This document shows positions 10,710-62,004 of a stretch of DNA of 64,000 nt, in pieces. Made by a program: the position numbers and the translations under genes. The first letter of the stretch is position 1. Each line of letters starts with the position of its first letter. A model generated the notes under the pieces. It was not told where the DNA came from. It worked only from the letters and a program-made list of their open reading frames with translations, and did not search any database. Where the stretch lies: the NCBI GenBank assembly GCA_051294375.1, contig CM119267.1, positions 6,534,367 through 6,598,366 on the forward strand. The letters are read 5' to 3'. The DNA comes from Paraspadella gotoi (taxonomy: Eukaryota > Animalia > Chaetognatha).

Positions 10710-10916
10710 TTTCAAAAACCCTAAAATTAAATATTTTTAATGATCGAACATGTTAAAAGCAAACATCCAAAATTTGCTTAATTAATATTAAGATATGTCT
10801 TTGATTAGAGTTAGTATATTTCAACTGATAAATTTGCACTCTTTAAACTGAGATGTTTTGATTCTAAGCCTTCTTCACCAAAACACGAGCTATTTTGCCC
10901 ATGACTTTGGTCAGGC

Positions 10917-11185
10917 TATAGTGGATTAAGTCCTCTAAGTATGTGCGTTTCTTGTACGAGTATTGGAGACTTAAAGCCGCTTTACCACCTAGTTATAAGT
11001 ACTATGCCGCAGCCGCTTTGTGACTAAGTGGGCTCACCCACCATTCCAACCGTGAATTCCAGGTTCAATACATGAGGCTTTTAGCTAATTTGCCAATTTA
11101 TTTCCTCCCGAGAACGGACCGCGACAGTGGTAGGTGGCGACCTGCTTAACGGGCATCACAAGAGATCCCCGCCGTTCCTAAATAC
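10917..11185 (+). mobile_element. GC-rich repeat-like insert with a tatagtggattaa start and B-box-like GGTTCAATAC
   Basis: Its start resembles the family 1 terminus. The segment caaccgtgaattccaggttcaat matches family 2 at 31618-31641. Confidence 0.4.
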
Positions 11186-15800: not shown

Positions 15801-16256
15801 CTCGGTCCCGCGGGCAACGTTTTGACCCGCCACTGCTGGGGCAGGCTGGGACGAGCTTTGGAACTGAGGTCGAGGATAAGCCACGGGCTGGGCGATGAAC
15901 TGCGTTCTTTCTTTGTTAACGCTCGCCTCTAGTCCCAGTGGAGGCGCTTGGGCCGAGTTTCCCGGGAATCCCGCCAAGAACGAGTTACGGGGGGTGTGGT
16001 TTTGATTTCCCCCCGGGGCGGATGGCAGATTAAGCGGTGTCGAACCTGTTTGAGCGCTCGTCATCAACGGCGCTGGACCGAGAATGCCAGGGACGTGCTG
16101 TTGATGCTGCGGCGGCTGCATGATGGTGGAGCTGGTCAGAGGAAATCGTTGAGGGGGAAATCCACTCTCGAGAGTCGACTGGAACTGGCCGTGCGAAGTT
16201 TCCGGTTGAAGGGAAGGAGGATGCCAGTTGGTCGTCGCGAATGGAGGTTTGTCCAT
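12874..16256 (-). CDS. CCAR1: CCAR1/DBC1-family protein, copy B; 3 coding exons, ~1052 aa
   Basis: Exons 13580-16256, 13194-13499 and 12874-13049 are GT-AG and phase-compatible. Same domain order as copy A, plus an R/D/S-rich segment and HWSELDPKKMK before the SAP motif. Confidence 0.93.
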
Positions 16257-18000
16257 GTTTTCATTATTCAGAGTCAATTATAGCTGACAAGAAAATAAAT
16301 CCCTTGGCTTACAATTAGGAACAAAATAAAAATAACCAAGATACAATAAAAAGGTTCGGTTGTTTGTGCGAAGGGACGGGTATTTCTGAAACTTGTTTTG
16401 TACGTAAATATGTTTCATCCGCAGTACGTATTTTTTAACAAAGTGCACTAAACCTAAAGAGGGTAACAGCAAATTGAACAAATAAAGCAACCAGAAACTG
16501 AAAAATTCAAAATAAAAATTCTTTTATTGCTTTACATTGATGCTATTTGAAAGAGTAATGGAAGGAATGAAACTGGATAAAAAACTTTCCGAGACGATGT
16601 CTGCAGTTCCTTAGTAAGAAAATCACACCGCGAAACCCTCTTAAAATTATGTGAAAATGCAAAAACCAACCCCCTTTGGTATTTTTCGTTTTGGCTAAAT
16701 ATATCACAGTTCTCTGCAGAAGTCCTTTATTGGAGAAAAAGCCATAGTTTATGTAGACAAACATGCAAAATTGCAAATACCGTAGATATAGAGTTGGAAA
16801 ATTTGCAAGATTATAAGGAAAAATTTTATTAGTGAAAAGTAATTCCGAATTTTACTTACTTACTTAAAATTGTAGGTTTTATCATATTTTCCGGATATTA
16901 GAATTTTTTTCCTAGTAACCACAAATTTGCCAACACTTGGATTGTTGGCGCAAGTAAAAGTCAACAGTAACAGAACTGAAGTGTTTGTGCGGTTTTATAA
17001 CGCGGCGGCAAATAACTCAATCATTCAACATCCGCTGAAAATCGAAACATAGTAGCTCATTGAAGGAGAAGAGCGCCTTTTCATCTTATCTAAATATATA
17101 CAGATCCTAAAGTAGTAACGTATCAAACACACTTTCTTGAAACCTATTAAAAACTTTACAAAAAATATTTTAGATTCTGTAGAAAGAAAAATAAAATCCG
17201 GAAATAAATAAGTAATAATTAACTGAAACAAAAGGTGACGCTAATCATCCTCTCGCAAAAACTTCGGATGCTTCTAAACAGTTTGTTCCATGTCCAAAAC
17301 GAAAAATTCCATATTTGACGAAAAGGGATGTTTATCTTCAATACTATGTAAGGCAGGCACAATAAAAGAAAACCCTATATTGCGTGAAAGGACGTAAAAC
17401 TGGAAATTTACGATACGACGGCCACAATTTTTTTTTGAAGAATATGAGTATAATCTACACGAACGGATTGAACACAGCATGAATTTTTTTAAGTACTTAA
17501 TCAGATCTTATTTTGTTTATTAAACAATGCTCCAGTTTTTTCCGCCCTTCGGTCGAAACATTTTTTTTTAGATAAAATAAACCGAAACGTCCGCTTCTAA
17601 AAAAACAAACCCAGCAGTAATATATATGTAGCAAAACAATGGGTATGTAAAACTGGGAAGGTAAAAAAAATCCACACGAATGAGAAAGAATGAAAAAAAA
17701 AAACCGTGCTACTTATCCGTCAGAGGATACGCAATTACAGGGGGAAACATTTTCCCTGCGCTCTTCTGTTCTAGTGTAGTCGGGTATGAGTTTTAAGATC
17801 CAAAACAAACTCTTTCATCCCTTTAGCAATTTTCCCGCGTTGAGAGATCCTGACTACCTCAGGTATGGACACTCAACGAACGAAATAGGGAATGCAGATT
17901 TTTCCCCGTCCGCACAAAGTGAGTTTCAGACGAGAGACTAGCACTGGCGTTCCGAGGCGGGTGAACGTTTTAACCGAGAAGTGAGGGAGCGTTCCTCCAT

Positions 18001-21000
18001 TCAAACGGGTCCGGTGCGGTCGCCAGCGTCGGCGCCGGAGAGGGCGTGCTCGGTCATGCTCAAAGCTAAAGATTCCAGTCGAGTGTTAATGTCGCTGATC
18101 GCTTCCCCGGCGTGACCAGTCTCCGAAGGGCGAGGGACCGTTCCTGAATTTAAATAACTTAAAAATATGATTAAATAATGCAGTTGGTGGCGGTACGAAT
18201 AAAAAGACGAATGGACGTCATCAGCCTTGTCTCATGGCTCAGCGGGCGAGAGCACATCGTCTCAACAGTGCGTCCATTATGGAAGTGGTTAAAACGGACG
18301 GGTCCGCAGCCCCTCCGTCAGTTGGCGAGATAGAAACGCCACCGTTGCCGTAAGTTTTACTTTTACTTTAAACGTCTATAATGGAATAAACGCTGAAATG
18401 CATGTAATAATAAATGTATATTGTATAATGTATATTATATAATTGTATATCTCTCACTCTCTTTGGGTTGATTCGCTTCTCCAGGCGCCGACTGCGTTCT
18501 AGTCACGGCCGAGTGCGCGCTTTTGTCAAACGCGTTTTGACGCTGCATGAAGTTCCCGTTCGTGGAATTATTGCGACCCAGATGAGGAGGAGGCGGCTTG
18601 CAAAGCCCAACTTACAAATCAAATAGCACTTATTAACACAAAAATCTATGGAAGTGTCAAATGTTAAAAACATGTTACAAACTTACCGGGAGTAATCCAA
18701 GGTCCATCACCAGAGCTTAAATCACCATCGGGGGTCGAACATGTCGGGGAGGTCGATGAATCGTGACCTGGAAAAATTAGATTTAAAAATTCGAAGAGAA
18801 AAAGTTTTGTTAATTTTGTTTATTGCCACACAATATTTTAAATTGGGGAAAAAACGTACTGGTTTCGACTCTTTTTTGCCAAACATTTGATGGAGAGAGA
18901 GAGAGAGAAGTGAGAAAAAAAACAATGAGGACAGTTGAAGGAGAGTGAAGGGAAATAAAATTAGATTAGTTAAAGTAGGGTTGTCGTGACGTAATATCAC
19001 TACCCGTTGGATACAACGCTTCATCTCCGAACTCAATGGTCCTGGGTTCTAGCCCTGGTCAAAAAGACCTTGCAAAAGATTGACTGGCCGGATAAACCCC
19101 CTGTAGCAAGGCTACCGCCGGATCCGAAATTTCGGAAAGCAAGGCAACTGACGGAATAACCTCCCAGACCCACTGGCCCAGTGGGCACACTGAGTGTAGG
19201 GGCTATCCACACCGTCAGAGAGGCACGGCGACCCTCTCTCTTCTTGGCCAGTGACCAATGGTCACTTCATGGTGAGGATAATATTAGGAAAGCATTACAT
19301 TTGGTTAATGTACAACAATAAGTCGAAACAAGACATTAACAATAAGTTTATGTCCAACATGTACACTTTTCCAAAACAAATCGTTGTTTGTTAACAGATA
19401 CAATATCAAAAAAGAACCAAATCAAAGCAATCGTCAAGCACCAGTTCACATACACGTGCGATCTCTTCGTCAATCCTAGGTTTTTAATAATTATAAACAA
19501 AATAAAATTTTAAATTGTAAGCCAACCCAGGTCGCCCCTATTTACCAAACGACAACTTTCCAACGGAAATCAAAGAATTCTTCAGCGAGAAAGGATTCTG
19601 AGAGGATACGTTTTGAAGAGGAGGCGCCGAAGGTGGAGGCGCACCCAAAGACCGCGAGACCGGCATGGATTGGTTCTCGACCGGGGTCATCAGCAGAGGG
19701 TGGGAGGATCCGCGATTCATCAGCGCCGCCGCTGCCGCCGCCGCCGCGTAATTCGTTTGTGGAAGACCTGAATAAAAATAGTGAAAGAACGGAGAGTTAA
19801 ATGGTACAAACTTGGCCAGCATATAAAATTATGTATATGGAATAGTACGATCATGAATTACGGAAATATATAATACAATTAAAAGGAAAAATCTCACCGG
19901 CGGCAGCAACGGCTGCGAACGCGGCGGCCGTTTGCGGACTGGAAACAGCGGAGGCGTAGAATGAAGGATGCGGGTGAGAGTTGAGCAGCGAGCGCGATCC
20001 CGAGGTGGGCGTGGAGGCTTGACTACTGGAGGCGAAAGACGGAGCAGCCGTCAAGGGCGACGAAAGGGGCGGCAACGAATCAGTGGAAGACTCCGTCGAT
20101 GGAATCGAGGAGTAGGTGCTGAATAGCGAACGCGGCAAAAAAAAAAAGAAAGTTACTTTAAAAATGTATATTACCTTTAAATCATTATCGTTACATAAAT
20201 TACACCATCGGCACCTAGAATGCCTGAATGCCCAGTTGGGTCGATGGTTTTTGGAGAGATCGCCGCGTCTATGCGAGACTCCCATCGGACGCCAGATCTT
20301 CATGATTTGTTGCTTCCAAGAGTTCAATCGTTTTTTCTGTGGAGATTATCGGCGAAAAAGGGGGGAAGAGTAAGCAAGCCGCAATTCGCGGGTATTCAAG
20401 GCCCCACTCAGTCGTCATTCGCCAACCTGAGTATTATTGAAAGCTTCGTGGTTGAGCGTTTTGTCCAGAAGAGACAAGTAAGTTCCGATGCCCTCCTCGT
20501 CGGGCCTGCCCGGGGAAACGAGAAGCTGCGTGCAGGCCTTTCCCAACACGCGGGTGATTAACGACGGAAGATCCATATCGTCGGGGGAAGAGTGAAGTCC
20601 GCCGTCCGCTATTGTTTATGGGATGAAGCAGAAAAAGCTTCGAATTTATCATAACTGCAAAAAAAAAAAAAAAAAAAAGTAACTTACCGGACGGAGACGT
20701 GGGTGGCGTCACCGCTTCAACGCCGTTGGAACGTCTCTCTTTTCCAGAGTCGCTCGCATCGTTGCTATCATTGACGCCTTTGTTTGTTTCCGGCGATTTG
20801 AGGACGCCGCCATTGTCATCATTACTTGATGTTGTTGCCGTTTCTGAAAAGCGAAAAAAATGGATGCGGAATAAATCGAAACCAAGTCGTATGTAGTAAA
20901 TACATAAATAGTGTAGTGAAATCAAGGAAGGACATTTTTAAACTACTCTTTTTACCAGCTTTTTCGTAGAATTTAATCGGCGAAGCGATGATGAGCTTTA

Positions 21001-24000
21001 AGTCGTTGAAGGCCTGACGCAATGGCTTCCCTTCCACGATGTCCGTCTCGATTTGGCGCAGTTGTCCAGGCCGTTCTCGCAACTTAGAGATGCTCAGACA
21101 AATCTTGTGGCGCGCGCCTTTAGAACAGATTTCTTAATTTAATTTGAGTGGCTTGTCGCGGTCGATGAGCAAATAAACAAACGGTTACCTTTGGTAACGC
21201 CTTGATTTTCCAGTTGCTCTTCGTTGAGGTTGAGCATCTGCTCGTAATCGAGTTGAGAAAAGAGATGTGCGTATCTGAGAAACGCAAAACGAGTAAATGA
21301 AAATAAACATTTTTTTCGGGTCATTAAAAAAAACCATTGGAGGTATTTACTTATGCAATCTCAAACTCTTCAACCAGGAGGGAACGTCCCTCATTCCGCT
21401 CATGTGGTCCGAAAATGAGTTTCGGCCACCGGCCGTGTTCCGTCCCAAGCTTTCGAAGTCTCCGCCGTCGGAGGACGCCACGCTGCTCTGAGGCGAGAGC
21501 GGGGCGTGGCGTGGCGCGACGAAGCCACCGCCACCGCGTAGCAACGACGATCCGTCAAAGGAATCTGTATGCAAATGTAGGGTACACAATGTAATGCGCG
21601 TCTTCATTTTCCGACGTTTTTTAAAGGATACAGAGTGTCTCGAGCGTACTGTGACTTTACAAATGAACGCTGTGTCAAATTGGTAAGGAAAATTATCAAT
21701 TTGATAGAACCACCAGAAAGATAAGTTTATACAGTTTTTTTGGTATCTATATTATCTATATTATCATGTTTATTTGTATTTTTATAAACAAAATGCAAAT
21801 TTCAAATGAAGGGAAATTTTGTTTTGAGCGTCGATCAAACAATTTTGGTGATATCAAATTTATAAATTAGTCCTGCTTTTGGTGAAAAATATAATTGTGC
21901 ATATTATATTATAGTAGGCTACTGAAGAGACAGCTACAATGTTTATTGTGCCCTTGACCAAGAATTTTGTGAAATTGAAATGCTTGACGATGATGATAAC
22001 GATTTCAGAAGAGAAGATTCAAAAAATTTGTTTTTTTAGACGCTCATTAAGTTTACCTTCAGGAAACTGATAAACGCTACAAATTTAGTATCCTATGATT
22101 CAGCATATGATGTACATAAATACAGAGTACATTCTGCCGCTAAAACTATTTTCCAGCTGACTGCAGCTCATAAGCATTGCTAATATAATTGGCTCTGTCA
22201 AACCAGCTGCATGTCTGTAACAGTCTTTCAATTAAAACCAATCAAATATTCTCAAATCCGAAAGGACAATGGTCAAATTCTGTCAGGAAAGGCCTGTGAC
22301 CATCACTTTACCACAGCTGAAAAAAAATCTTTTAGGTAGTTGGAAAGATTTGAATATTTTAAAATTTTTTCGTCATTGCCTTTAAGTGCTGATAAAATGT
22401 TATATAATTGTTTGACTTTAAAAATAAAATCAGCGGCCATTGGTTCCGGAGGCAAGTCATTCGCCTCCCAACCCAAAGGTCCAGGGTTCTAGCCCGGTGG
22501 TCGCTTAGCACGGGGCGCTTAACCCGCCTGTAACACGGTGTTACAGCCTGATCCAAAGCTCAGGGACTGCTTATATTGAACGGTTCTGTCACTTATATAA
22601 CAACAATAATTACTGTCTCTTCAACATCATATAAAACTAAGAACTTCTGGATCCAACGAGTACAGTAAATGCATTTTTTATAACTGTACTGACTCACTGT
22701 ATTCATTTGCAAAGTGACAGTATACTTGAGATACTCTGTAGATATTTAAAATTATTTTCATGTTTCTCAGACGTTTTTTTCATAAACTAAATTTGCTTAC
22801 AGGCAGACAGTAATTTGATTACTGTTTTTTGTTGAGCGAATTAGTGATTAATAATAAATTCATTTAGCTTTTAGGGTAGTAAATAAGCCTATTTAACAAT
22901 ATAAAACGTCCATCACTACTGCAAATATTTATAGTAGAACTAGTTTTAAATAGTGAAATAAATTTATATTTTTAATAATTTTTTTCTATTCTTGTATTAA
23001 TATTAAGTAAAATTAATTTATCGTTTTAATTATTACACCTGTTTCGGTGGGAAAGGAATTGGACCGCGTGCAGCGGGACAGGGCGGCGTTGTTGCCGTTG
23101 GTAGCGGCGGTGGACGACGGCGGAGCGGCAAGGCGCTGCGCCAGGTTAGTCATAGTCGCCGTCGACGGCAGTTCATCTTGAATTGACGATTGAGAACTGA
23201 AAGGAGGCCATTCGTCCTGGAGGATTTTTGATGAATGTAATGTGATAAATGCAATGTATTTAGGTCCAAACAGAATTTTACAATGGAAATATCCCCGACG
23301 AAATCGTACCTAGATAGGGAATCGGGAGTCGGGACAGCTTACTTGAAACTGTGGGCTCGTCGGCGTGGATGAGGGCGGCGTGAGCGAGTTGCTTCTTTGC
23401 CTTTGCCGCCGGCCGATGGGCGGGAAGTCGTCCGCGTCGAAGCGGTCGCTCGTCTCGTCGCTCTGCAGTGACTGAGAAAAGAAAGATCGGCGCGATCCTC
23501 CGAGCGGCGTTGCCGACGAGCAATAACCGGCGTCGTGGCCGGCCACGGCCGACGCCGGTGGGATCTGGGCGCCCGGCTCGGCGAAGGTGAAGTGCCGATG
23601 GCTCGACCCGCTGTGAGAGAAGGAGTCGGCCGACAACGGACCTTTCAGGGGTAAAGCGTTAGATTACACACCAAAGATGAACTATAAACAATCTATGGTG
23701 GACTAAAATCCACCAACCGTTTATCAGTGGCCATTGGTGCCGGAGGCAAGTCATTCGCCTCCCAACCCAAAGGTCCGGGGTTCTAACCCGGTGGTCGCCT
23801 AGCAGTTAAGAGGGACGGGGCGCTTAACCCGCCTGTAACATGGTGTTACAGCCTGATCCGAAGCTCAGGGACTGCTTATATTGAACGGTTCTGTCACTAA
23901 CACAACAATAATTACTGTCTCTTCAAATCTAAAATAAAAAATATAATATTAAATAACAGTTGAAAAAATAAACTAACATTATTCAATTTATATTCAAAAT

Positions 24001-30926: not shown

Positions 30927-31157
30927 TATGGTGGACTAAAATCCACCAACCGTTCATCAGTGGCCATTGGTGCCGGAGGCTAGTCATTCGCCTCCCAACC
31001 CAAAGGTCCGGGGTTCTAGCCCGGTGGTCGCCTGGCAGTTAAGAGGGACGGGGCGCTTAACCCGCCTGTAACATGGTGTTACAGCCTGATCCGAAGCTCA
31101 GGGACTGCTTATATTGAACGGTTCTGTCACTAACACAACAATAATTACTGTCTCTCC
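30927..31157 (+). mobile_element. Family 1 repeat, full length; twister at 31035-31108
   Basis: Same 231-bp element, with a perfect 5-bp TSD aaaag at 30922-30926 and 31158-31162. Confidence 0.9.
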
Positions 31158-31576
31158 AAAAGTATGTTTTAGTAAAAATGAAACCAAAACAGTAACTTAC
31201 TCGAAACTTACCTGCTTACTTCAAATTATTTAAACCAAAATACAATGTACACCTTGCCAAAAGCATTGTTATACTATAAATGAGTATTTCCAAAAAATAT
31301 TTTTAACTGTTATGTCTTAGAATGAGATTAAATAATAAGTTTTCAAACATTTTTCTGCCAAACCGCGCGGAGAAAATCGAGCAGTTGCCTTTGCTGCATC
31401 AAAAAAAGCAGTATATTAAAGAATTTCAAAAATATTAAAATATCGTCTAAAAGCTAAGAGAGTCTTATACAAATATTTATTCAGATTTTAAAAATAATTA
31501 AGAGTTTTAGAGTAATGATTTTTTAAATTTTGTCTCTATATATGGTCCCACCGCTGTAGTATAAATGAAAAGTGTA

Positions 31577-31856
31577 GATAGTGGCGAATCCTGAATTCGC
31601 CTCCCGTATATAGTTCACCAACCGTGAGTTCCGGGTTCAATCCCCTCACGGTCACACTGGTTAAAGTGTGATGTGTCGGAATAAACACGCCAGTGACATG
31701 GGGTGGTCACTGCAGGTCCAAAGCCCTGAGCGCCAGCTGTCGGGAGATGCCTCACACCCCAGGTATCACACATGTCCCTCCGTTGCCATAAGTGGTGAGC
31801 CCTACTATCGAACACGCAACCGCTGCGTACCGTCGCTCACGTCGTCGCTTAAATAA
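31577..31856 (+). mobile_element. Family 2 GC-rich repeat with a B-box head and a twister fold
   Basis: GC-rich island in AT-rich DNA, with a 5' hairpin GGCGAAT..ATTCGCC and a B-box GGTTCAATCCC. Boundaries are approximate. Confidence 0.6.
31657..31736 (+). ncRNA. Twister ribozyme, type P5 (candidate)
   Basis: P5 CTGGT/GCCAG; P2 GTGT/ACAC; GA; U^AA at 31682/31683; GC; P3 CAGTGAC/GTCACTG; P4 CAGG/CCTG; L4 UCCAAAGC; conserved A after P4. One T1 mismatch (TGT vs CCA). Confidence 0.75.
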
Positions 31857-32756: not shown

Positions 32757-35300
32757 CTACATCATGTAAAATATGTCTTGCCTGCGCACCGACTTACCTT
32801 TAAAAAAAAAAAATCCATTGTATTGTGAACAAAATATTAGCATATTACCCTGCTTTGAGCCCAAAATTACGTAATCGCTTTCATCATTGACGGAAGAAAG
32901 GTCATAACTAAAAATAATATTGTTGGATTTTATACATACAGAGCTTCAATTACGGAGCTTCAATTTTTTTCTATTTATTTTTTAGTTACTATAATTACTC
33001 GCATAAAACTTTTTTTACGGTCTTGCTGCAAGGAATTTTGTACTGGCGGCACTTGTCACAAGGAACATACTTATCAAAAAATATATGATGCCATTCTTCA
33101 CGAGGAATAATAGGGCGACTTTTGAAAGCTATTCTCCTGACCTAAAAAAATCGACTTATCAGACCTTATCATTTTAGTCATAACCATTTCGATTTTTCAT
33201 GACTTACATCTCCCCACGTTAGGACTCGTCGATCGCATTCGAAGTCTTCCGTTTTAAAATAAGCAAAACGATCATTATTTTCTGTTTCCATGACGACAAA
33301 ATCCTGTTAGCAAAGTAAAATTTTTTAAAAAAATTTTATGTTAAAAATCATTTTAATTTTAGGTGATACTAGAAAGTAAATAAATTGTCAAATTAAGTAC
33401 GGAGACTCTAAATATGCCCAACAAACATTCCACATGGCGGGAAAACAAATATATTTGCATCAAAATATTTTGACCTTATTCAGAAACTTACTTCCGTGAG
33501 AGGACGATAGTATTTGTCTCCAACGAAGAGCCACAGATTCGGAAAGAAAGCTTCTTTTGCATCTACTGCTCTAACGCAACCCCACTTGTCCTGGTTCCAT
33601 GACTTCTCATGATTAACTTTTGAACCATTTTCCAACTTTAAACTGTACTTAATTCGCCGAATTCCATGACAAATGGGAAATCGATTGAATTCCGGCGCTG
33701 ATCTGCAAACAAGCATAAGTTCGGCTCTGTTTAAGTTTTTGGGTTTTAAAGCTGAACTTGGCAATTGAGGAATGACTAATGAGGGAATGATTAAATGAAC
33801 AATTTTAAAAATATAAAATTTAAAATAAGTAAGTCGAAAATATACGAAAACCTGTGAATCGGCTTGGGGTTCCATTCAATGCGAATTTCAACTTTTGGGT
33901 TGTTATTAGCGTCCAAAGGGCAACCTGGAAATGGAATGTACGCAACTGTCACAGCTCGTTTTAATAAAAAATCAGATTGAGATTAAAGACGTCGTTATTA
34001 TTATTTTAATAGTAAGAAATTTGTCCTTAACTGATATATATGAAAGGCAAAAAACATACCTCGTTCAATCAATCTATTTTTATATCCTCCATTTAGGCAC
34101 TTTTCAGAGACTTCATTAACAACCATTTCTGACCTAATATAAAATGAATATAAAGGCGAGGAGAAGACAGAAATATAGTAATGAATTCAATCGTCCTTAA
34201 TAGTCCCTCATCTTTGGATCAGGCTGTAGCCCAAGCTTCGGTAAGTCAAGCGCCCCGTCCCACTAACTGCTAGGCGACCACTGGGCTACAACCGCTAAGT
34301 GCGCTAAGTGGGCCTGAAGAGTACTATCTGAACTTATGCAATGCCCGACTACATGCCCCCAGATTGTTACCCACCCTGCACTGCTTCCAGTGGAGGGAGG
34401 GGAGCAATCTTCAGCAAATCCATGGGCCTGGAATCAGAAGGTTGGAATACGCTCGACAGGATGGGCTCAACAGAGTGGATAAGACGCTAAGTGGGGCTGA
34501 AGAGTACTATCCACAACTTCATTAACCCCCTCTAGCAGCCATGGAACGGGTCCTGGGCTTTGAACCAGGCTTGAGGGTTTTCCACGCCCCAAGGCGGCTT
34601 ACGACCATTCTCATGCTTCCGGCAGGGTAGGTACCGAGTTCAATCTCATGATGGCTTTACTCAATGAGCCACCGGGTCACGACTGTAGGTGTCATGCTTA
34701 TAGGCAGGGTGAACTTATGCAATGCCCGACTACATGCCCCCAGATTGTTACCCACCCTGCACTGCTTCCAGTGGAGGGAGGGGAGCAATCTTCAGCAAAT
34801 CCATGGGCCTGGAATCAGAAGGTTGGAATACGCTCGACAGGATGGGCTCAACAGAGTGGATAAGACGCTAAGTGGGGCTGAAGAGTACTATCCACAACTT
34901 CATTAACCCCCTCTAGCAGCCATGGAACGGGTCCTGGGCTTTGAACCAGGCTTGAGGGTTTTCCACGCCCCCCCAAGGCGGCTTACGACCATTCTCATGC
35001 TTCCGGCAGGGTAGGTACCGAGTTCAATCTCATGATGGCTTTACTCAATGAGCCACCGGGTCACGACTGTAGGTGTCATGCTTATAGGCGGGGTGAACTT
35101 ATGCAATGCCCGACTACAGACTTTCCTCCGGGTCTGTTTGATGGATTTTAATCCAACATAACGATCAATGTTAATATTGATATCAATAAAGACAACTCAA
35201 CGACCAACTTTAATATTTACTTATGTAGAGAATAAAAAGCGAAAAAACAAAGCGTTCACTTGATCGGAACTTCGATTCGAACGATGCGCAGCCCTACCAT
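32757..35300 (-). CDS. Unannotated 8-exon gene, ~255 aa, no family recognised
   Basis: Exons 35260-35300, 34060-34133, 33852-33954, 33492-33702, 33208-33303, 32999-33141, 32849-32907 and 32757-32797 join with GT-AG sites into a stop-free 768-nt frame. The terminal exons are uncertain. Confidence 0.7.
34330..35160 (-). repeat. Tandem array of a ~381-bp GC-rich monomer (family 3) with a degenerate twister-like fold
   Basis: Units start at 34330, 34711 and 35095 (partial); the two full units are nearly identical. A diverged partial copy lies at ~60998-61202 (+), and a family 1 fragment at 34202-34292. Confidence 0.85.
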
Positions 35301-36310
35301 AAGCATAAAAAGTGTTTTTTATTAAATATTTAATTGAATTTGATTCTTTAAGAAAAACTTTGCTATTCGTTTTCCCATTGATCTTTAGAGCGTATCAATC
35401 ATCAGGAATAACCTTTACTTTTATACCAGATGTAAACTAAATTGATTAAAATGATTACAATTACCCAAGATAGGAGCATTTTTAATAAACAGACCGACCA
35501 AAAAGTGACTTATTGAGTTATCACGTAACTAAAAAAAGTTGACGGCTCAGTGGGCATTTTAGTAGTCTGGCAAGCTTCCATGGGACGGGTTGGAATATCT
35601 TTACAAAACCTTGGGAATATTACCTTGGTACCAAAATAAGAGTTGAGATAGAACGATTTTTTGTCTACAAAGCCAAAAGGTTCGTAATCGGGTTACTCCA
35701 ATATGCAAATGAGATTAACGTATCACAGTAATATTTTAATTTAATAAAAACTTATTAATCTTATATAAAAATTTAAATAAATATAATAAAATCAAATTAA
35801 AAAGCTAGTATATATAGTTTTATCAGCAGATAGGATAAAAAAAATAATATTAAGCACTAAAAAGCATATGAAAATACTATTGCAATAAAGGTTTTTTGTA
35901 ACTTAATCTTGAAAGATAGTAAGACAGTAAAGCAAGGACAAAAAACTATTAAGACAGATAGAAAGATACAGATCAATCAGTTTTTTGTTTTGCTCACAAC
36001 CATTTTGGTACTGTTTACTTGAATCATAGCAAGGATTCTTCGGATGCTTTCCTTTCCAGCGCTCTCATCAATTAATTTCAGAGTAAGATTAATAGTAAAA
36101 AGAATTCATGATTGTTTTTGTAATTCTCTCCGTCGTTATCATAGTTATTATCTTTGTTTGTTTGCTTTAAAAAAGACTACAAAGTTGAAAAAAGCTTTTG
36201 GCTTACCTGCAAAAAATATAAAAATGTTTATTCTTTCTAGAATAAAAAAATACTTTTATGTAAGGTGATGGCAAACAAGGTGAGGAAACTATTTTCATTT
36301 TGTTGGTGCT

Positions 36311-36543
36311 GAAGAGACAGTGATAACTGTTATGTGTTAGTGACAGAACCGTTCAATATAAGCAGTCCCTGAGCTTCGGATCAGGCTGTAACACCATGTT
36401 ACAGGCGGGTTAAGCGCCCCGTCCCTCTTAACTGCCAGACGACCACCGGGCTAGAACCCCGGACCTTTGGGTTGGGAGGCGAATGTCTTGCCTCCGGCAC
36501 CAATGGCCGCTGATGAACGATTGGTGGATTTTAGTCCACTATA
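36311..36543 (-). mobile_element. Family 1 repeat, full length; twister at 36362-36435
   Basis: Reverse-complement copy with a perfect 5-bp TSD gtgct at 36306-36310 and 36544-36548. Confidence 0.9.
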
Positions 36544-43283: not shown

Positions 43284-46200
43284 AAGCCAACAACAACGAC
43301 CACGCCACCCCAAATGGACCCCTTACACCCTCCACCTCCGACTCCGCCCCCGCCGGGAAAAATATACCATATATACATATTTTTGCTAGTTTTTTACTCT
43401 AACTAAAAATACATGCAAATTTATGGAGTAAAAAAGCTTTATTGGTAATCAAAATGTAATTCAGTTTTACCTTTTTCCAAATCCAAAAGAAAAACAAAAA
43501 AATTCATATGCCTTCATTAAAATTTTTAACTCCAAAAACTGTTATACTTTTAACTAGGTTTTAAACAATTCTTGTCTTAACATTTTTGGATAAAATTTAT
43601 AGAAACTATTTCGTAGAAAAACTATTGTCAGACAAGTTGTCCGCATGATTAGGGCTTTAATTTGATACCTCGCCCCACCACTCCTATCTCTTTTCTTTTC
43701 AACAAGTTATGCAAAAAAAATAACTTTTTTCATCCGGAGAATTAAAGAATTTGAAGCCTACTGCGTATCAATCTTTGTTTAATAAAGCAAAAATTTCGGC
43801 AACCAGCGGAGTATCTCAATTATCCAAGTATGTATAATACCTAAATTTCAAAAAATAAAAACTAAAGAAAATTTTGTTATCATCTAGAGACATATCACTT
43901 TCAGTTGTACCGCCCATCGTCTCTACTCGTTTATGGCTTATGGTTTAAGAATTCAGAGAAAACAAAGTATCTAGTCCAAATTTCAACTTTTACACTGTAA
44001 TTTTACCTGTATCATTGGCTGGGCCCGAATCATATTTGCCATGTATTTGTCCAGCATAAACTGTCAGAAGGATGGCTTAGTTATTACAAATGGTCAGATA
44101 AATAAATTCCATGACCGATAATTTTTTTTGTGCACATGAAATTAAGCGTGATCTGTCTCTGCGTCTTAGTTAACTGATTAATTATTTGATTAATTAATAC
44201 ATCTTGCATTTACATTTAATGAGTAGAAAAAACATGAAGCATCAATCAATGTCGGTGAACAGGTTTTCTGTGTTTTTTGGTTCATTAAACTCATCTCCAC
44301 TGGAGCACGAATCCGATCGAAACAATTCTTTCCGGGTGTCGGAGAACGTTTTTATTCAACGCAATCCACCGCTCTTCGCCTACCCCACATCAAACATTTC
44401 AAGTCTCAATCGTCCTCTCCACTCATGTTATAATTCGGTGTTCAAAATAATGAAATACCTATTTTTTTGTTCTTTTTATTCTCGATCATACATTAAAACT
44501 TATTTCCACTCGCTGACATAGTTCCGAATTGAGGATTTGCAAGATCGCCGAAATGTTTGCACCAATGATTTAAAGTGTGTGCCCCCGGACAATATTGAGC
44601 GAGGGCGGACCGACGGACCGACCAAAGTGGAAGTTATAGAGTCGGGAATCCTGCTGATACAGTCGCATCCGCGAACTAAAAAATTGAAAACAGTCTTTTT
44701 AAAAAACATTTTTTTGATGTCAGCCTTATAACTTTCAAACGCGTCTTGCCACGCTCGAGTTTATGTAGGAACTGCTGGCACCGCAATTGCCCTTGACTCA
44801 AATCTTCTTCCAAAAAAGCTTTGTGTTTTATTTTTTCTATATTGTAGCTGCTTTAGCCATCCCAAGATACGAGATTTTTTTTCGACTGGTGCGTGAAAAA
44901 GTGGCCTACTTTTTTTGTCGCCCTNNNNNNNNNNNNNNNNNNNNNNNNNNNNNNNNNNNNNNNNNNNNNNNNNNNNNNNNNNNNNNNNNNNNNNNNNNNN
45001 NNNNNNNNNNNNNNNNNNNNNNNNNNNNNNNNNNNNNNNNNNNNNNNNNNNNNNNNNNNNNNNNNNNNNNNNNNNNNNNNNNNNNNNNNNNNNNNNNNNN
45101 NNNNNNNNNNNNNNNNNNNNNNNNNNNNNNNNNNNNNNNNNNNNNNNNNNNNNNNNNNNNNNNNNNNNNNNNNNNNNNNNNNNNNNNNNNNNNNNNNNNN
45201 NNNNNNNNNNNNNNNNNNNNNNNNNNNNNNNNNNNNNNNNNNNNNNATCTTTTAAATCGTTTCCTTAGATGCAGGACAGTAAGAAAAAACCTTTAATATT
45301 AAAAAAAATTAATTACTTGAAATATCCTGAAGTTTCAGAAGTTTTAACAATATTCTTAATAAGTCCTTTACTACTGTTGTACAATTTATTCAATAAAAAT
45401 GGAGTTTTAAAATGTAAGGAAGCTGATGTGCTTATCAATTCAAGATTGCTTCCAATTTCAACACCAGCAGATGAAGCTGAAGTAATTTGAAGATATGTAG
45501 TTTCCGCGGAATAATCAAATATATTTATAACTTCTTTAAAATCGTAAATCCTAAAAAGATTTGAATACGTTATTTATCATAAAAAACTATATTCAACCAC
45601 GTAATACTACCTTGATTCCAAGTCAACCACAAAATCAAGCGTTGACACAAATGTTGAAGCACTGACAGTAAGTTTTTCATGCATATCCATTTGGACGAGT
45701 GGAGTTAGAGGATTAATATTGCGATTATTCAAATTCGTCCGAGTGCTGTTTAACAAATGCGAATACTCAGTAATAAGAGAAAGCAAAAGGGCGATATGAA
45801 GTTGCTGTATGCTACTTCATGTCNNNNNNNNNNAAAAATAACTTTTTTTCATCGGAGAATTAAGGATTTGAACTACGCAGTATAAATCTTTGTTAAACAA
45901 AAATTTCGGCAAAGCGGGAGTATCTCAATTTATCCTAGTTGTATAATACCTAAATTTCAAAATAAAAACTAAAGAAAATTTTGTTATCATCTAGAGACAT
46001 ATCACTTTCAGTTGTACCCATCGTCTTACTCGTTTATGGCTTATGGTTTAAGAATTCAGAGAAACAAAGTATCTAGTCCAAATTTCAACTTTTACACTGT
46101 ATTTTACTGTATCATTCTGGGCCGAATCATATTTTGCATGTATTTGTCCAGCATAACTGTCAGGAAGGGATGGCTTGTTATTACAAATGGTCAGATAAAA

Positions 46201-48700
46201 TAAATTCAATGACCGATAATTTTTTTTGTGCACATGAAATTAAGCGTGATCTGTCTCTGCGTCTTAGTTAACTGATTAATTATTTGATTAATTAATACAT
46301 CTTGCATTTACATTTAATATAAAAAAAAGAAGCATAATCAATTCGTGAAACAGGTTTTTGTTTTTTTTCATTAAACTCATTTCCACTGAGACGATTCCAT
46401 CGAAACTTGATTTCCAGCTTAATCACACGCTTTCCTACCCACATACAAAATTTCAAGTCAATCGTCCCTTCCACTCATGAATAATTGGTGTTCAAATAAT
46501 GAAATATATTTTTTGTTTTTTCCATTTAAACTTATTTCCACTCGCGCGATTCCATCGAAACTAATCGAGCACAATCTCACACTTCGCTACCCACACAAAA
46601 AAATTTATTCCAATCCATCCATCCAATCTCGAGTAATTGGAGTTTTATGCTAAGGTAGGACGGATGGATGGACAGACAGACATCGTTTTTTTGCATAATT
46701 TATCATAATTCGATGTTCTGACATATATGTGAATGCCCTACAAGATTAAGGAGGCATATCGACGGACAGACAAAGTAAATTATAGAATCGGAATCTGCTG
46801 ATAAGCAGATTCGACTAAAAAAAAATAAATTAATTTTTGCAAATACATTCTTATATGCAAAATTGCTTATTCACTAATACACTATATGGTATACAGTTGT
46901 CCCAATGGTACTGGTCCTGTAATAAAACTTACTGCCTCCTATACCAATTCGAAAAATTTTAAATCAGTATCATTACAATAGTTCTTTTTTTTCCGACCCA
47001 AGTTTTTTCAACCCGAAATCCCACGTTAGTACCGATTTGTCTGTCAAGCTATTAATGGCACCGCAAATTCGATCCTTGGAAAAAAACCCACGGGATCAAA
47101 AGCGCCAAAGTCACGTACTTCCGGTTATCCAATTTTTGTTTCGTTGAAATTTTTTTCAATAGACAAATTAAAAGACGAAAATAGTTTAAAATAGTAAGAA
47201 TTAATAGTAATATAAGAGAAAAAAAATAAAATATTTAATTGGTAAAAATAATTAGAAAAACCTTAAGAATCAATGTACAACGATAATAATGATGAATTAC
47301 TTTTGTTTAGCTTATGTTTTTATTTATACATCCTAGCGAGTTATAACGAATTTTAATTATTTATAAAAATTATATTTAATTTGAATTTAAATTTATTTTT
47401 AATATCTATATTCTTATACGGCACAGTCCAATATGAGTAGAAAACCAATATCAGCTGATTTCGGAATTGCAACGCATTGGACAATCCGTCCTCCTCCATG
47501 CAGCCACCAACCGGGGAAAGCTATGATTGAACTTTACATGGAGTGTATAACTCTGCCAAGATTGGGCAGAAGAAAAAAAGCAACAACGCAAGTGCTTAGA
47601 ACCTATTGATACTGTGGCGAAGGTGACGAAACGATTCCACTTCATGCATCAAAGACGGTCAAATTGAAAAATTGAATAATTCCTGAAGATTTCAAAGTCG
47701 TCCGAAAAGTCGATGAAAGTCGCCGAAATATACAATGGCAGTTATTTCAGTATTTGAATATTCTAAGAAACATTATAAATATTAAATTTTTTTAGCAATA
47801 ATTTCATTATGCGATGAGGGAATTCCATATTTTGACATCTCGCTGAGGACGCTATTGATATCGTTCTCAGACTTAACAAAATCCCAAGAAAGATCGAGAA
47901 GAGGACCCGAATTCCTACGGCGCCTTACGCGCAATGATCAATGTTGCATCTTGGCAACTTGATATCAAGCGGCTCAGAATTTAAACAAGATGCAAAGCGT
48001 CATTGAGCACCAAGCAAAGGAGAGAAAAGAAGCAAAGCCGTAAAACAGTATATATTCTTAAATAACAAGCACATAGCATAATTGTGTAATTAACTTTAAA
48101 TGTCATTACTAATGATAATTCATAAGGATGACAACGCACTGTTTGTCAGCAGATCATTTGCGATATTGACCTCCATCTGTCGCTAAAAGAAACTGATCCT
48201 ACTTGCAACAATAGACAAAAAAGAGCTAAACTTCCTGAGGATATATAGAACATCGTTTTAAAAGCAAAAGAGCTGGACAATTCGTATTGATCTTCATACC
48301 GACTACTAACAAAGTCCGTTATCTCGCACTGGCTTCTGATAAGGTTGATGACACAACGAAGCGCCATGTTGTTGACTTAAATTATTTCGTCGTTCACATG
48401 ATGTTGGGCAAGCCTGCTGCCCGAAGTCTACTCTAGGATACTTAATAATTTTATTAACATGAGTCCTGCTCTTTTTAGTACACACTTAATATTTTATATT
48501 AACAGTAAAATATATATGAAGACATCAATCTTCTTTTTAGTTAATGTAAAGTTGAGCCGGCTTTCTTTCAAAATTCCTCGTAAAGAATTGGAGTCGACGA
48601 GTCTTACAAACTGTTCTGCTTTCTTGTCAAACGGATTTTTCGATGTGAAGATCTGCGAAAGAGGATTAAATTTACTTCGGACTTTCACGCGCATACACGC

Positions 48701-48745
<45 letters not shown>

Positions 48746-51636
48746 GAGCAACAACTAGCCGCAGAATGCTCAAGGGATAGAAAGCACTTTGTGTATTATA
48801 TAGTTGCTATTTTTTCTCTTTAAAGTGACAATTGAGCTATTGCTAAACTTTTTGAAAATTACGTTCAATAATTGTGGATGAATCGTTCTGTTTTTTTAAT
48901 TTGATAACTTTGAAAAATGCATTTGAACTGCGGAAAAACCGGAGTATTATTCTAGTATTATGGTTTGACATAAATAGGAATGTTCGTGTTTATCTTATCT
49001 TTCTGAGAAGTAAGTATTAAAAAGTGTAGGTAAAATATATTTTCTTCTTTGAAAATATTAAATAACTTCCCATAATAAATCACCTTCGAACCCCCTATAT
49101 TTTGACGCTCGTGGCACTTTGACGCTCTTGATCCCCCGTACTGCATTTTTAAAAAAATGAAATGCAACATCGAAAGACCTCGATAGACGAATCGTAGACT
49201 ACTTCATTTTGGGTCAAAAGATTTTGGTCGTGGCAAGAGTTCTAATGTACAAGGTATGTACCATTTTATATAAATTTAAAGATGAAACCTAATAAACTCC
49301 TGTAAGTATTACATAAAGTAATCGGTAAAAAAATTTTGGAGTGATTTCTTTAAAAAAATTTTAGATTATATATCTTTAATTTTTAACAAATATCATTATA
49401 ATATGATTTAATAATCTTTTAAATCTTTCCTTAGATGCAGACAGTAAGAAAAAACCTTTAATATTAAAAAATTAATTCTTGAATATCCTGAAGTTTCAGA
49501 AGTTTAAACAAATATTCTTAATAAGTCCTTTACTACTGTCTACAATTATTCAATAAAAATGGGAGTTTTAAATGAGGAAGCTGATGTGCTTATCAATTCA
49601 AATTGCTTCCAATTTCAACACCAGCAGAGGAAGCTGAAGTAATTTGAAGATATTAGTTTCCGCGGAATAATCAAATATATTTATAACTTCTTAAAATCGT
49701 AAATCCTAAAAGATTTGAATACGTTATTATCAATAAAAACTATATTCAACCAACTAATCACTACTGATCCAGCAACCACAAAATCAAGCGTTGACACAAA
49801 TGTTGAAGCACTGACAGTAAGTTTTTCATGCATATCCATTTGACGAGTGGAGTTAGAGGATTAATATTGCGATTATTCAAAGTTCGTCCGAGTGCTGTTT
49901 AACAAATTCGAATACTCCAGAAATAAAGAAAGCAAAAGGGCGATATATAGTTTGCGTATGCTACTCATGGCTGAATAAGTACTACCCTTAAGTGACGAAA
50001 ACCAACAGTGCTCACTGCTTAGAAGAATTTCATTCCGGCTCGATAATTCACTTTGCGGCTTGTCGGTCCCACCCCAAAATCTTGTCAATAATCTATCAGA
50101 ACTCGAATTATGATAAATTTATGCAAAAACAAGTTTGAGCAAACAATGTCGGATCTGTCCACGATCATTATCGGTAATTAATTCATGTAATTAATTAATT
50201 AATTAGGCAATTAATAATTTGATCCAAAATTTTGTTTAGGTCTTGTCGTCACTAACCACGACAAAAGCAATGGCGACATGAAATATGCCAATAACGATTG
50301 ACTTTGATGATTGATTGAATAATTAATTAATTAATAGATATATAAATTGATTGATTGAAAAATTAATAAATAGATAAATTGATTGATTGAATAATTAATT
50401 GATTGATTAAATGACTGATTAATTAATGAATTATTAATTAATTGACTAATTGATTAATTAACTGATTAATTATTTGATTAATTAATACATCTTGTATTTA
50501 CATTTAATATAAAAAGAACAAGTTTGAGCAATTAATTAATTAAAGTAATTAAATAATAACTTAATAATTAATTAATTCAAGTTAATTAATTAATTAATTA
50601 GTCAATTAAATAATTAACTTGGTTAATTGACTGATTAATTAAAAACTGATTAATTAATTGACTAATTGATGAATTAACTTATTAATTATTTGACAGACAG
50701 ACAGACATCGTTTTTTTGCATAATTTATCGGACCGACAAAGTGAATTATAGAGTATCAGCAGATAAGCTTATAAGCAGATCCGACTAAAAAGAAGCATAA
50801 TCAATTAGTGTAACAGGTTTTTTTTTCCATTTAAACTAATTTCCACTCGGAGGATTCCATCGAAACTTCATATCCAGCTCAATCACACACTTCCCTACCC
50901 ACACACAAAATTCCATTTCAATCCATCCATCCAATCACAAGTAATTGATGTTTTTTGCTAAGGTGGGACAGACGGACGGACAGACAGACAGACGGACATC
51001 ATTTTTTTTGCATAATTTATCACAATTCGATAACGATGTTCTGACATGATATAAGTGAATGCCCGACAAGATTGAGGGGTTGGACCGACGGATCGACAAA
51101 GTGAATTATAGAGTCGGGATCTGCAAAAAAATGATGTCCGTCCGTCTGTCAAAAAAGTAAAATCACTGTTTGATTAGGCCTTTTTATAATAAATAATGAT
51201 AGAAGCTGCATTATTAAATTAATTAACTATTTAATTAATTATTGATTATTTAATTAATTATTAAATTATTATAATAACGAAAACGATGACAAAGTCAAAG
51301 ACGACGTTGAAAAAACCTAAACCGATGACGTCGCCAGAGAAGATTATTTAAAAAAGTAATTGTTATAAATTACTTAACCATTATTACTTAATTAATAAAT
51401 GTTTAATTAATCAATTATTTAATGATCGTGGGAAATGGTTATAAGAGCAAAACATTCATTTGCAGGGAAGGTTTGGACCAGGGCAAAAAACCGGGAGCTG
51501 AAGCGTTAACCCAAGGTAATATTACGGTGATGATGGATATTACAGTCACATCTAATAGGTACTGATTAGGATGAAACATTATGAAAACGAAAATAAGGCG
51601 GGTCTAACAGAGATCACAAAAATAAACAAGATTTAT

Positions 51637-52035
51637 TATGGTGGACCAAAATCCACNNNNNNNNNNNNNNNNNNNNNNNNNNNNNNNNNNNNNNNNNNNN
51701 NNNNNNNNNNNNNNNNNNNNNNNNNNNNNNNNNNNNNNNNNNNNNNNNNNNNNNNNNNNNNNNNNNNNNNNNNNNNNNNNNNNNNNNNNNNNNNNNNNNN
51801 NNNNNNNNNNNNNNNNNNNNNNNNNNNNNNNNNNNNNNNNNNNNNNNNNNNNNNNNNNNNNNNNNNNNNNNNNNNNNNNNNNNNNNNNNNNNNNNNNNNN
51901 NNNNNNNNNNNNNNNNNNNNNNNNNNNNNNNNNNNNNNNNNNNNNNNNNNNNNNNNNNNNNNNNNNNNNNNNNNNNNNNNNNNNTTATATTGAACGGTTC
52001 TGTCATTAATACATAATAATAATTGCTGTCTCTTC
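51637..52035 (+). mobile_element. Family 1 repeat spanning an N gap
   Basis: The 5' end tatggtggaccaaaatccac precedes the gap and the 3' end ttatattgaacggttctgtc...gtctcttc follows it. Flanks are tttat/attat. Confidence 0.8.
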
Positions 52036-52061
52036 ATTATTATATTTTATTTATTTTATTA

Positions 52062-58659: not shown

Positions 58660-61600
58660 GATGAGATGATTTTGTGAGCGGGTAGGAAAGTGTGTGAAGA
58701 AGCTAGATATAAGTTTTGACGGAATTGTGCCAGTGGAAATGAGTTTAAATGGAAAAAACATAAGTCACATTTACTTGAATCTTTTTTATTTATGATTACT
58801 AATAAATGTTATAACTAATTAATTAATTAATGTGAAAAAATGATGCAATTTAAAAAAATTATGCAAGTTGAAAAAATGATGCAAGCAGAAAAATGATGCA
58901 AGTTAAAAAAATCCTAAAAGCATAAGGATCGTCGCAATTGCAGAGAGAGAGGAGAGAGAGAGAGGAGAGGGGGAAGAGAGAGAGAGAAGAGAGCAGAAAA
59001 ATGAGCATAAGGATCGTCGCAATTGCAAAGAGAGAGAGAGAGAGAGAGGAAAAAGAGGCAGAAAAATGAGCATAAGGATCGTTGCAATTGCAAAGAGAGA
59101 AAGAGAGCAGAAAAATGAGCATAAGGATCGTCGCAATTGCAAAGAGAGAAAGAGGGAGAGAGAGAGAGCAGAAAAATGAGCATAGGATCGTTGCAATTGC
59201 AAAGAGAGATAGAGAGAAGATAGAGAGAGAGAGAGAGAGAGAAAGAGACAGACAGAGTCCGAGATAAAATTAGACGAATAAAAAGTTGTTATTTTACTTA
59301 CTGAATATAAAATACTTAAAATGCTTACAAAATACATAAAATTGATAAAGTTATTATTCCGATAACATTTTTTAATCTCATGCAATATATCAAGTAAGGC
59401 GGGCCAAATTTTACACTTTTTATAACTTCTAGTTCTCTCAAAAAATTTCTTTTTTCCTTCTACTACTAAATCGATTTTCAATGTAACTTTTTGAATTAGT
59501 TCATTGGGTTGTTGCACTGAAGCTTTTAAATATTTATTAATATATAACAAATGACAAAAAAAATTTAAAATTTGATTTTTTAGAACGGGTTCTTGTAGAG
59601 CTTAAAAAGTTAAATGAAAGTTAGTACTATAATTTTTTTCAAATTTTGACAATAAATTGGTTTAAAATAGAAAAAAACCTTAAAAAAATTATCATAATTA
59701 TCATTATTGGCTAAATTTTTTTTAAATTTTTCATTAATAAAACAAAAAAATTTTTAAAAGTTGTATTAATAACCTTTATCTAACTATTATTATTATTATA
59801 TATTTATCAGAATCTATAAAAAAAATTAATAAGCAGAAATTTTAAAAATTATTTTTATTTCATATTTCGCTTAACCATTATTTATTTGAGAGAACTTCTA
59901 GGTTTCCACCTGTTCCGGCCTAATATCTAGTAAGGCGGGCCAATATTGAACACTTTTATAACTTCTAAGTTCTCTTTAAAAATTTTTTTTCCTTTTTACT
60001 ATTAAATCGATTTTCAATGTAACTTTTTGAATTAGTTCATTGGGTTGTTGCACTGAAGCTTTTAAATATATTAAATATATAATAATTATATAGAGTTTTG
60101 ACGGAATTGTGCCAGTAGAAATGGAGTTTAGATGGAAAAAACATAAGTCACATTTACTTGAATCTTTAAATATTAATGATTAATAATAAATGTTTTAATT
60201 AATTAATTAATGTGAAAAATGATGCAAGTTAAAAAAATCTTTAAAAGCATAAAGATCGTCGCAATTGCATAAAAAAGAGAGAGAAGAGAGAGTGAGAGAG
60301 AGAGAGAGAAGGAGACAAAAATAAAATAGAGGATATTTGTTTGTTTTGATAAAATGTAAACAAAACATATTTAATAACTGTCCTAACCCAATTTTAAGGA
60401 CATCGATGATGATAAGTGAATTAAATTTAAAATTAATTATTTACATTTTGAAAATTAATTATATTAACGTTTTATTAAATTATCGTAGGCAGATCCGATC
60501 GTTGTTGCTCCAAACATTATTTTTAGTCAACAAGAGTCCGGCAATGTACCTCTCCCTCATGATTATAAAATGTTTATAATATGAACAATGTTTTTGGCGG
60601 AACTAATTTAGCATAGAATATCTGTAAGGATAGGTGTCAACCATTTTTGACCTAAATCAAATTAAAATAAGTAAGGAAACTATATAGAAAAATAATCTTT
60701 TATCATTAATCAGAAAAAAAAGTATCATCATTTTTTCCCAATTCCGTTTTCAGACTGACTTTGACTTGCTGTATTCTACTGCCTGAACCAATTAACTTTT
60801 TTCTTGCACCAATCAATAGCTTTTTAAAAAAGCTATACTTTTCATAAATATTTTCTTAAAATTAAAAAGAAATAGTGGGGGTATTTAAAGCTAACAAGTG
60901 TCTACTTTTTTTTGCGTCGGTTTATATTAGTCTCAGATATTTTCGAGAATCTCCAACTTGAATCGAGAGCTATTTGCTATTTGCCGTTTGATTGTAGGGT
61001 AGTCGGGCTTTTCATAAGTTCACCCCGCCTATAAGCATGACACCTTCAGTCGTGATCGGTAGCTCATTGAGTATTAGCTACCAGGATCAATCCCCAATGG
61101 TTCCTACCATGCGGGAAGCGTAAGGCTCGCTGTAAACCACCTTGGCGGCTTAGAAAACCCTAAAGCCTAGTTCCAAGCCCAGGACCCGTTCCATGCCTGC
61201 TATTACCTTCCCATTGTATAAATATAATAAGTAAACAAATATTCAAAAAACCAATAATTCGAAGTAAGAACAAGTTTGAGCAAACAATGTCGGATCTGCC
61301 CACGATCATTAGAGGTAATTAATAAATTAATTAATTTAATCCAAAATGTTTGTTTTTGGATCTTTTTGTCAATGACCACTAGAGTGATGTAAAAATGATA
61401 AAATTTTAGAAAATTAAAAATTAGCATATAAAATATAAAAATAAAAATTAATAAAAATATTTTAGTAAATTTATTTTTAAATTTTATAAGTGGGCAACAG
61501 TAAGCTATAAGTAAATAATAAACTAAAAGGAGAGAGGATTTCATTAATTGGATTGGATAGTGTGTGGTAGAAAAATGTGTATCGATTGCCTATATAAAGT

Positions 61601-61973: not shown

Positions 61974-62004
<31 letters not shown>

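Follow-up and report, generated by a model that had tools for sequence, protein, structure and literature searches.

A candidate miniature LTR retrotransposon with a predicted type-P5 twister in its long terminal repeats

Helenus elements (TRIMp3; Kojima, 2024; PMC10886601) are short non-coding LTR elements of 311-1263 bp which carry tRNA-derived A and B boxes in the LTR. In the model put forward for the plant LTR retrozymes (Cervera et al., 2016; PMC4918200) a unit-length circle gives rise to a solo LTR, a monomer or a multimer. For the animal non-LTR retrozymes dimeric cutting has been described in the axolotl (Cervera and de la Pena, 2020; PMC7229834), and the tandem arrays of Cassandra are made by recombination or template switching (PMC7215508). 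These sources, and the further papers drawn on in this work (PMC6765202, PMC7761336, PMC10085705, PMC8557442, 10.1101/2022.07.19.500677, and 10.64898/2026.07.22.740005), are used here as far as their accessible sections go.

In this work a tandem repeat was analyzed within a stretch of 64,000 nucleotides, hereafter the window. The window is animal DNA, as indicated by two tandem, nearly intron-free CCAR1-like genes on the minus strand (7506-10736 and 13380-16277) with S1-like, DBC1, SAP, and LAIKA domains; these genes are divergent from all named orthologues (41-56% identity, best 120 matches shown). Several other dispersed and tandem repeat families occupy 56700-63300 and 44100-50700, including an 18-nt array at 57234-57458 and AG-rich units, and the indel noise in the repeats of these two regions suggests unpolished sequence.

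The array and the anatomy of the LTR

The array is composed of two minus-strand units, 34329-34709 (381 nt) and 34710-35093 (384 nt), which are 99% alike and differ by one substitution and a 3-nt indel in a C run, followed by a partial unit of 25 nt (35094-35118). A sequence-only reading had reported the same two full units and a partial one of 23 bp. The GC content of the unit is 52-56% and its sense strand is without any run of four T. Tandem Repeats Finder run on the stretch did not have the dimer among its output, ARAGORN found no tRNA, and the predicted folding of the whole unit is not better than that of shuffled sequences (z 0.02 and -0.52). On balance, the architecture appears to be LTR-internal-LTR-internal-deleted LTR, which corresponds to a miniature LTR retrotransposon without genes, present as an array with three LTRs and now decayed (Table 1). 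The pieces at 34202-34329, taken earlier for short re-primed fragments and a family 1 piece, are indeed present; the 27-nt fragment at 34302-34328 (96% identity to 34866-34892) is, however, not re-primed and is what is left of a third LTR with an internal deletion, while the family-1-like piece at 34202-34293 is linked to the array via a 9-nt duplication (34293-34310).

Table 1. Putative features of the array and of related stretches in the window.
Feature	Position	Strand	Remarks
LTR A (5' LTR, 264 nt)	34855..35118	-	starts TGTAG; ends CACT at the locus, CACA in other copies
tRNA-like box A, LTR A	35038..35057	-	20-mer; TGGCT fits Helenus box A TRGCY
Box B segment, LTR A	35012..35032	-	inverted in both units of the locus; normal orientation in other copies
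Predicted type-P5 twister-like fold, LTR A, decayed	34920..35011	-	GA 34996-34995; predicted cut 34985/34984; L4 34945-34938
Primer-binding site	34844..34853	-	TGTTGAGCCC at the locus, one mismatch; other copies start TGG
Internal region A (120 nt, non-coding)	34735..34854	-	terminates in purine tract GGGGGCA abutting the next LTR; diverged contigs span the junction
LTR B (261 nt)	34474..34734	-	boxes A and B (the latter inverted) and decayed twister as in LTR A; predicted cut 34601/34600
Internal region B	34354..34473	-	identical to internal region A
Third LTR, 201-nt internal deletion	34302..34353	-	keeps the first 25 nt and a 27-nt piece near the 3' end
Family-1-like piece (81%)	34202-34293	-	contains a decayed copy of the same twister module
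Second LTR copy	60993..61202	+	80% identical over 204 nt (60999-61202); 5' end intact, corresponding to the 35118 end; 3' truncated; twister decayed
Family 1 copy, solo-LTR-like	23696..23925	+	TG...CA ends; target duplication of 6 bp; B box; P5-type core complete (within 23799-23878, predicted cut 23825/23826)
Family 1 copy	30929..31158	+	6-bp target duplication; complete P5-type core
Family 1 copy	36310..36541	-	target duplication 5/6 bp; complete P5-type core
Family 1, further places	22429-22623, 51985-52036		
Family 3	31625..31802	+	B box, P5-type twister (P2 4/4, PK2 2/3), LTR-like end CA
Family 3 primer site TGGTGAGCCC	31793-31802	+	
Family 4	19040..19276	+	B box, decayed P5-type twister, perfect 6-bp P5, CA end then TGGTGAG

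The family outside the locus was followed in public sequencing runs of one organism, nine of which cover parts of the stretch, all as contigs; four runs were compared with the locus and its flanks and four with one unit, i.e., six different runs altogether. Summed contig depth over the repeat is thousands of times the flank depth, a figure which is not a copy number. Exactly behind 35118 the contigs diverge into unlike AT-rich sequence (109, 159, 85, and 30 contigs in four runs), and a second preferred end lies at about 34855, where at least 39 and at least 26 contigs in two runs enter AT-rich sequence (loose ends before 34875); the 3' end of the LTR is supported by fewer contigs than the 5' end. 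Between these two ends the other copies begin with TGTAG and end with CACA on the minus strand; one base further on stands TGGTGAGCCC, and a purine tract precedes, which at the locus is GGGGGCA and stands immediately before the TGTAG of the next LTR. At 34855, and at 34851 within the primer site, 95-99% and 97-100% of the depth, respectively, carry a letter other than that of the locus. The primer 10-mer is also found behind the LTR-like end of family 3 (31793) and a 7-mer of it behind family 4; compared with tRNA 3' ends, its best counterpart among the matches listed is tRNA-Trp with 9/11, none of them being a full match. In summed contig depth the internal stretch 34735-34854 is about 5-10 times shallower than the LTR, as with an excess of solo LTRs, and contigs carrying 10-15% other letters span both LTR/internal junctions.

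Given two ends, a primer site, an internal region, and a purine tract in other copies, an LTR-type anatomy, with two LTRs, primer site, purine tract, and non-coding internal region, is highly probable. It should be noted that the majority letters of the family are pooled from short contigs, with no single intact natural copy among them, and that no copy of the dimer family has both flanks readable for a target duplication. Exact-match scans for the LTR stretch in metagenome and viral contigs returned 0 matches. The family also shows more than 100 single-copy internal deletions, and at the 3' end of the LTR (34855-34915, minus strand) there is a long imperfect hairpin in which the letters of one subfamily keep pairing (loose ends before 34915).

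At the locus the tRNA-like box A is without the YGG part of the Helenus box A motif. In all runs the loose ends before 35033 read as the reverse complement of 35012..35032 and contain GGTTC, and in the 61.0-kb copy, too, box B is in the normal orientation. In the A-box hairpin, what looked like a compensatory change was a by-product of deletions near box B.

All three full copies of family 1 have TG/TA...CA ends inside 6-bp duplications (6/6, 6/6, and 5/6), and the family, which carries the most complete twister core in the window, probably consists of solo LTRs and not of a SINE. The tRNA-headed stretches 31520-31850 (family 3) and 18975-19280 (family 4) carry the same twister module and primer site. 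At 11030-11070 a B-box-like stretch similar to family 3 lies next to the primer 10-mer in reverse with one mismatch; it may be a remnant. Four matches to the family-1 twister pattern in metagenome contigs, none with P4, were taken as chance.

The twister-like fold

The structure predicted in the LTR is very probably a conserved fold of the type-P5 twister. Its elements follow the order P5, P2', GA, PK2 strand, 6-7-nt linker, UAA, P2, GC, P3, P4, L4, and P5', and the position of the partners upstream of UAA identifies the permutation as type P5. The sequence-only reading had proposed a twister-like fold, and for the family this is plausible. The A-box-like 20-mer, TAA-GCC-GC, P3, P4, the loop TTCAAAGC, and the following A were all recovered on the minus strand where it had placed them. 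Its register did not hold, as P2 and T1 partners downstream of P4 fail (there is no type-P1 match) and lie upstream instead. A type-P3 register gave no match to its descriptor, and HDV-like, hairpin, and twister-sister readings around the junction, tried by eye only, were dropped.

Against Rfam nothing in the window reaches gathering level and there is no hammerhead match. The fold of LTR A scores 13.7 bits with Twister-P5 (E 1.2; gathering 37.6) and family 3 scores 20.8 bits with twister-P1 (E 0.02; gathering 67.2), both below threshold, and with the Rfam twister models neither family 1, even at E 10, nor the 61-kb copy gave a match. Only 28 of 20000 dinucleotide shuffles of the unit contain the P4/L4 hairpin on either strand, and a strict P5 descriptor finds four places in the window (families 1 and 3) compared with a mean of 0.08 in 100 block-shuffled windows, both descriptors having been composed after the motifs were seen. 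The P4/L4 descriptor also matches family 1 and a third family, and in all families with a readable box B the distance from this box to the start of the L4 loop is 78-87 nt (67 nt in a copy with a deletion). Own-family P5 pairing was the best of 24 permutations; taken alone, the P5 of the dimer family is not significant, since 529 and 643 of 2000 shuffles were equally good.

The four families of the window share this predicted fold with compensatory changes. PK2 pairs CGG with CCG in family 1, and GGA with UCC according to the majority letters of the dimer family; P3, P4, and P5 also differ yet pair. Core pairs were tabulated by script, with position labels which we take to be rice-twister numbering; the MAFFT alignments A3 and A4 are 1-2 columns off register. 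The cut-site N-A-A and the conserved G-A are both present in 7/8 tabulated copies (the 61-kb copy has AA), and P4 is 4/4 in 7/8 copies with an L4 of 8 nt, its closing pair being A-U rather than G-C in families 1 and 4. Both pseudoknots are full in family 1 (three copies) and in the majority letters of the dimer family, the PK2 pairs being reduced to 2/3 in family 3 and 1/3 at the locus. For P2, family 3 has 4/4 pairs, family 1 has 3/3 and a bulge, and the locus has 2/3; in two families the stem amounts to 3 bp with a bulge. At the locus, 3/13 of the listed core pairs (P2, PK1, PK2, P4) fail, at 34998, 34993, and 34942, positions at which 96-99% of the family depth has the pairing base; none of the listed majority changes breaks a core pair. 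Twisters tolerate P2 bulges and the loss of P1, which is dispensable in vitro, whereas pseudoknot mismatches were not tolerated in the accessible part of the published tests, and the twister copies at the locus are for this reason probably crippled. For intact copies, self-cleavage is fairly likely.

A P1 stem is unable to form within one copy, and in its place stands the 6-7-nt linker. The majority changes at 34988 and 34991 turn this linker into the perfect palindrome CGGCCG; self-complementarity reaches 6 nt in family 1 and 4 nt in the family 4 core and is weak in family 3, the chance level being 5% of 6-mers for 6 and 36% for 4. A mostly palindromic linker in place of P1 may mean that cutting needs two copies.

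Origin of the doubling and proposed mode of propagation

The dimer had been ascribed to rolling-circle reverse transcription of a circular RNA, a claim that the evidence does not support. The mismatch in the primer site, the loss of the terminal CA, the inversion of box B, and the defects of the twister are common to the two units. Reverse transcription recopies the primer site from the tRNA, and integrase needs the CA. Since priming and integration would not have passed on these shared changes, the damage probably predates the doubling, and the copy at the locus is probably dead. The dimer allele as assembled is in none of the runs, which were available as contigs too short to reach the number of units at the locus. 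The shares of words per run were 0.50-0.55, 0.42, 0.33, 0.18, 0.17, and 0.12. The window allele would be expected to give 1.00, a single scrambled copy 0.58, and the flanks by themselves 0.18; these models were built after the joints had been seen, and contigs drop words in repeats. In place of the 201-nt deletion of the third LTR, three samples have a 161-nt deletion (joint 34891>35053), the left flank joining the LTR 41 nt further in, and in a single-copy contig the twister segment is inverted. The doubling thus quite probably arose at the DNA level, either by unequal exchange between LTRs or as an assembly duplication. As for multimers elsewhere, other loci do carry the same head-to-tail junction, and in place of the permuted starts that rolling-circle copying had suggested, two ends are preferred. 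The insertion at 34200-35200 is seemingly absent from samples X7 and X8 and otherwise rearranged in three more.

The retrozyme-like life proposed earlier is plausible for the family, and not in its non-LTR form, given that an LTR, an internal region, a primer site, and a purine tract make up the unit. Intact copies likely work like plant LTR retrozymes. Transcription by RNA polymerase III would begin at the tRNA head, some 55 nt inside the 5' LTR, and could continue into the 3' LTR as the sense strand is without T4. The twister in each LTR would then cut some 45 nt downstream of box B; this probably requires two palindromic linkers to pair and so supply the missing P1 stem. Cutting would free a unit-length RNA of about 400 nt with 5'-OH and cyclic-phosphate ends. 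A unit cut in both LTRs has no terminal repeat and hence would serve reverse transcription only if circularized, the route described for the plant retrozymes; a host ligase would close it, and the resulting one-ribozyme circle would be stable, protected if cutting needs two copies, as with dimeric hammerheads. The reverse transcriptase of a helper LTR retrotransposon, primed by a host tRNA, would copy the circle into solo LTRs, monomers, or multimers, to be inserted by the helper integrase. The circular intermediate itself is possible but falls a little short of probable. Run X9, guessed to be RNA, spans the intergenic flanks and thus says nothing on expression.

The main competitor to a circle is an ordinary Helenus-type element with a linear RNA, in which the twister cuts mainly in the 3' LTR, replaces the missing polymerase III terminator, and leaves a short repeated R. 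A precedent is the Cassandra transcript, which runs from the 5' LTR into the 3' LTR, where it terminates, and has a short repeat; the unit is without T4, while by eye many fungal Helenus LTRs have T runs behind the tRNA part, and the genomic products would be indistinguishable from those of a circle. Selective cutting would nevertheless need an extra rule, as both LTRs have the same sequence, and the palindromic linker suggests paired cutting; we consider the linear form unlikely. Rather more improbable is a relic fold that no longer cuts: it would have come from a non-LTR element along with a tRNA-derived SINE and would persist as a structure only. The missing Rfam-level match and the absent P1 would fit such a relic, twisters are known at the 5' ends of RTE-type elements, and Helenus is thought to originate by SINE insertion into an LTR, but both pseudoknots, in full or in part, and GA and UAA are retained with compensatory changes in families which are otherwise unlike.

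The array could also be imagined as a non-LTR retrozyme in the form of a non-autonomous Penelope-like element (Naiad) whose LTRs are pseudo-LTRs; its dimer would then stem from copying around a circular template or from partial tandem insertion. MRC1, once mistaken for an LTR element, is a Penelope-like derivative, and animal retrozymes have been linked to Penelope-like elements, both according to the accessible parts of the sources. In such elements the 3' end is fixed and the 5' end truncated to a variable extent, while here the 5' end is the sharpest (85-159 contigs) and the 61-kb copy is 3'-truncated; a primer site, a purine tract, and TG...CA are present, and the shared damage argues against the locus copy as a template, which makes this origin very improbable. 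A plus-strand 5'-truncated SINE and a Helitron were both dropped on the second end, the promoter direction, the primer site, and the purine tract.

Comparison with known systems

With Helenus the element shares the tRNA-like boxes of the LTR, a putative primer site, the purine tract, the excess of solo LTRs, and the tandem arrays (Helenus LTR-11_DR), and its size of 264 + 120 + 261 = 645 nt lies within the range of 311-1263 (PMC10886601). It differs in that the accessible text of that paper mentions no ribozyme for Helenus, in a primer site which is not among the Helenus primer sites listed there, and in the 6-bp target duplications of sister family 1 as opposed to 4 bp in animal Helenus. A motif search of the Helenus consensus file, as far as accessible and with line breaks that could hide a match, found none of five twister-loop motifs. 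The host is not close to the Helenus hosts listed (CCAR1 41-56% identical, best 120 matches shown).

Like the plant LTR retrozymes (PMC4918200), the element is non-coding and has a putative primer site, a purine tract, and a self-cleaving motif, here predicted, in each LTR. The plant elements, as described in the accessible sections, have a type III hammerhead, 600-1000 nt, and 4-bp duplications, whereas here the motif is twister-like, the host is an animal, the unit is about 400 nt, and there is an internal polymerase III promoter. The animal non-LTR retrozymes (PMC7229834) are similar in unit size and tandem copies, and differ by a type I hammerhead, a GC content under 50%, and the lack of LTR, primer site, and purine tract. 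The three-LTR, two-internal arrangement of near-identical units is like that of Cassandra tandem arrays (PMC7215508), which belong to plants and have a 5S-derived promoter and, in the accessible description, no ribozyme. With the type-P5 twister (RF02684; PMC5408937, PMC11662667) the predicted fold shares the element order, UAA cut site, GA, P2-P5, and, in family 1 and in the majority letters of the dimer family, both pseudoknots; it is unlike RF02684 in having a linker for P1, a short bulged P2, and a score below the Rfam threshold. Outside subscription papers and Repbase/Dfam, the literature searched describes, in its accessible parts, no twister within an LTR element, and the supplement lists of PMC11662667 and PMC8501958 may contain such motifs.

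We tentatively suggest a radiation of animal LTR retrozymes of at least four families, in which a tRNA promoter is combined with a P1-less twister that would cut only when two LTR copies pair and would release a stable small RNA circle. If so, the element might, with equal reserve, be a natural version of the engineered system for circular RNA composed of polymerase III and tandem twisters, and a twister gated by two-copy pairing would be useful for circular-RNA tools. Retrozymes have been defined by hammerheads, and the LTR type has been described from plants only; a twister in an animal LTR, if true, would make ribozyme class and host kingdom interchangeable. It would also explain how a terminator-less, polymerase III-driven LTR element produces its genomic RNA, and would give twisters a second eukaryotic role besides the trimming of Perere-3. 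P1-less twisters, if true, would fall below Rfam thresholds and may have been missed in many repeat libraries. As reconstructed here, the element is built like Helenus, would work most like a plant LTR retrozyme, and stands outside both retrozyme classes as defined.
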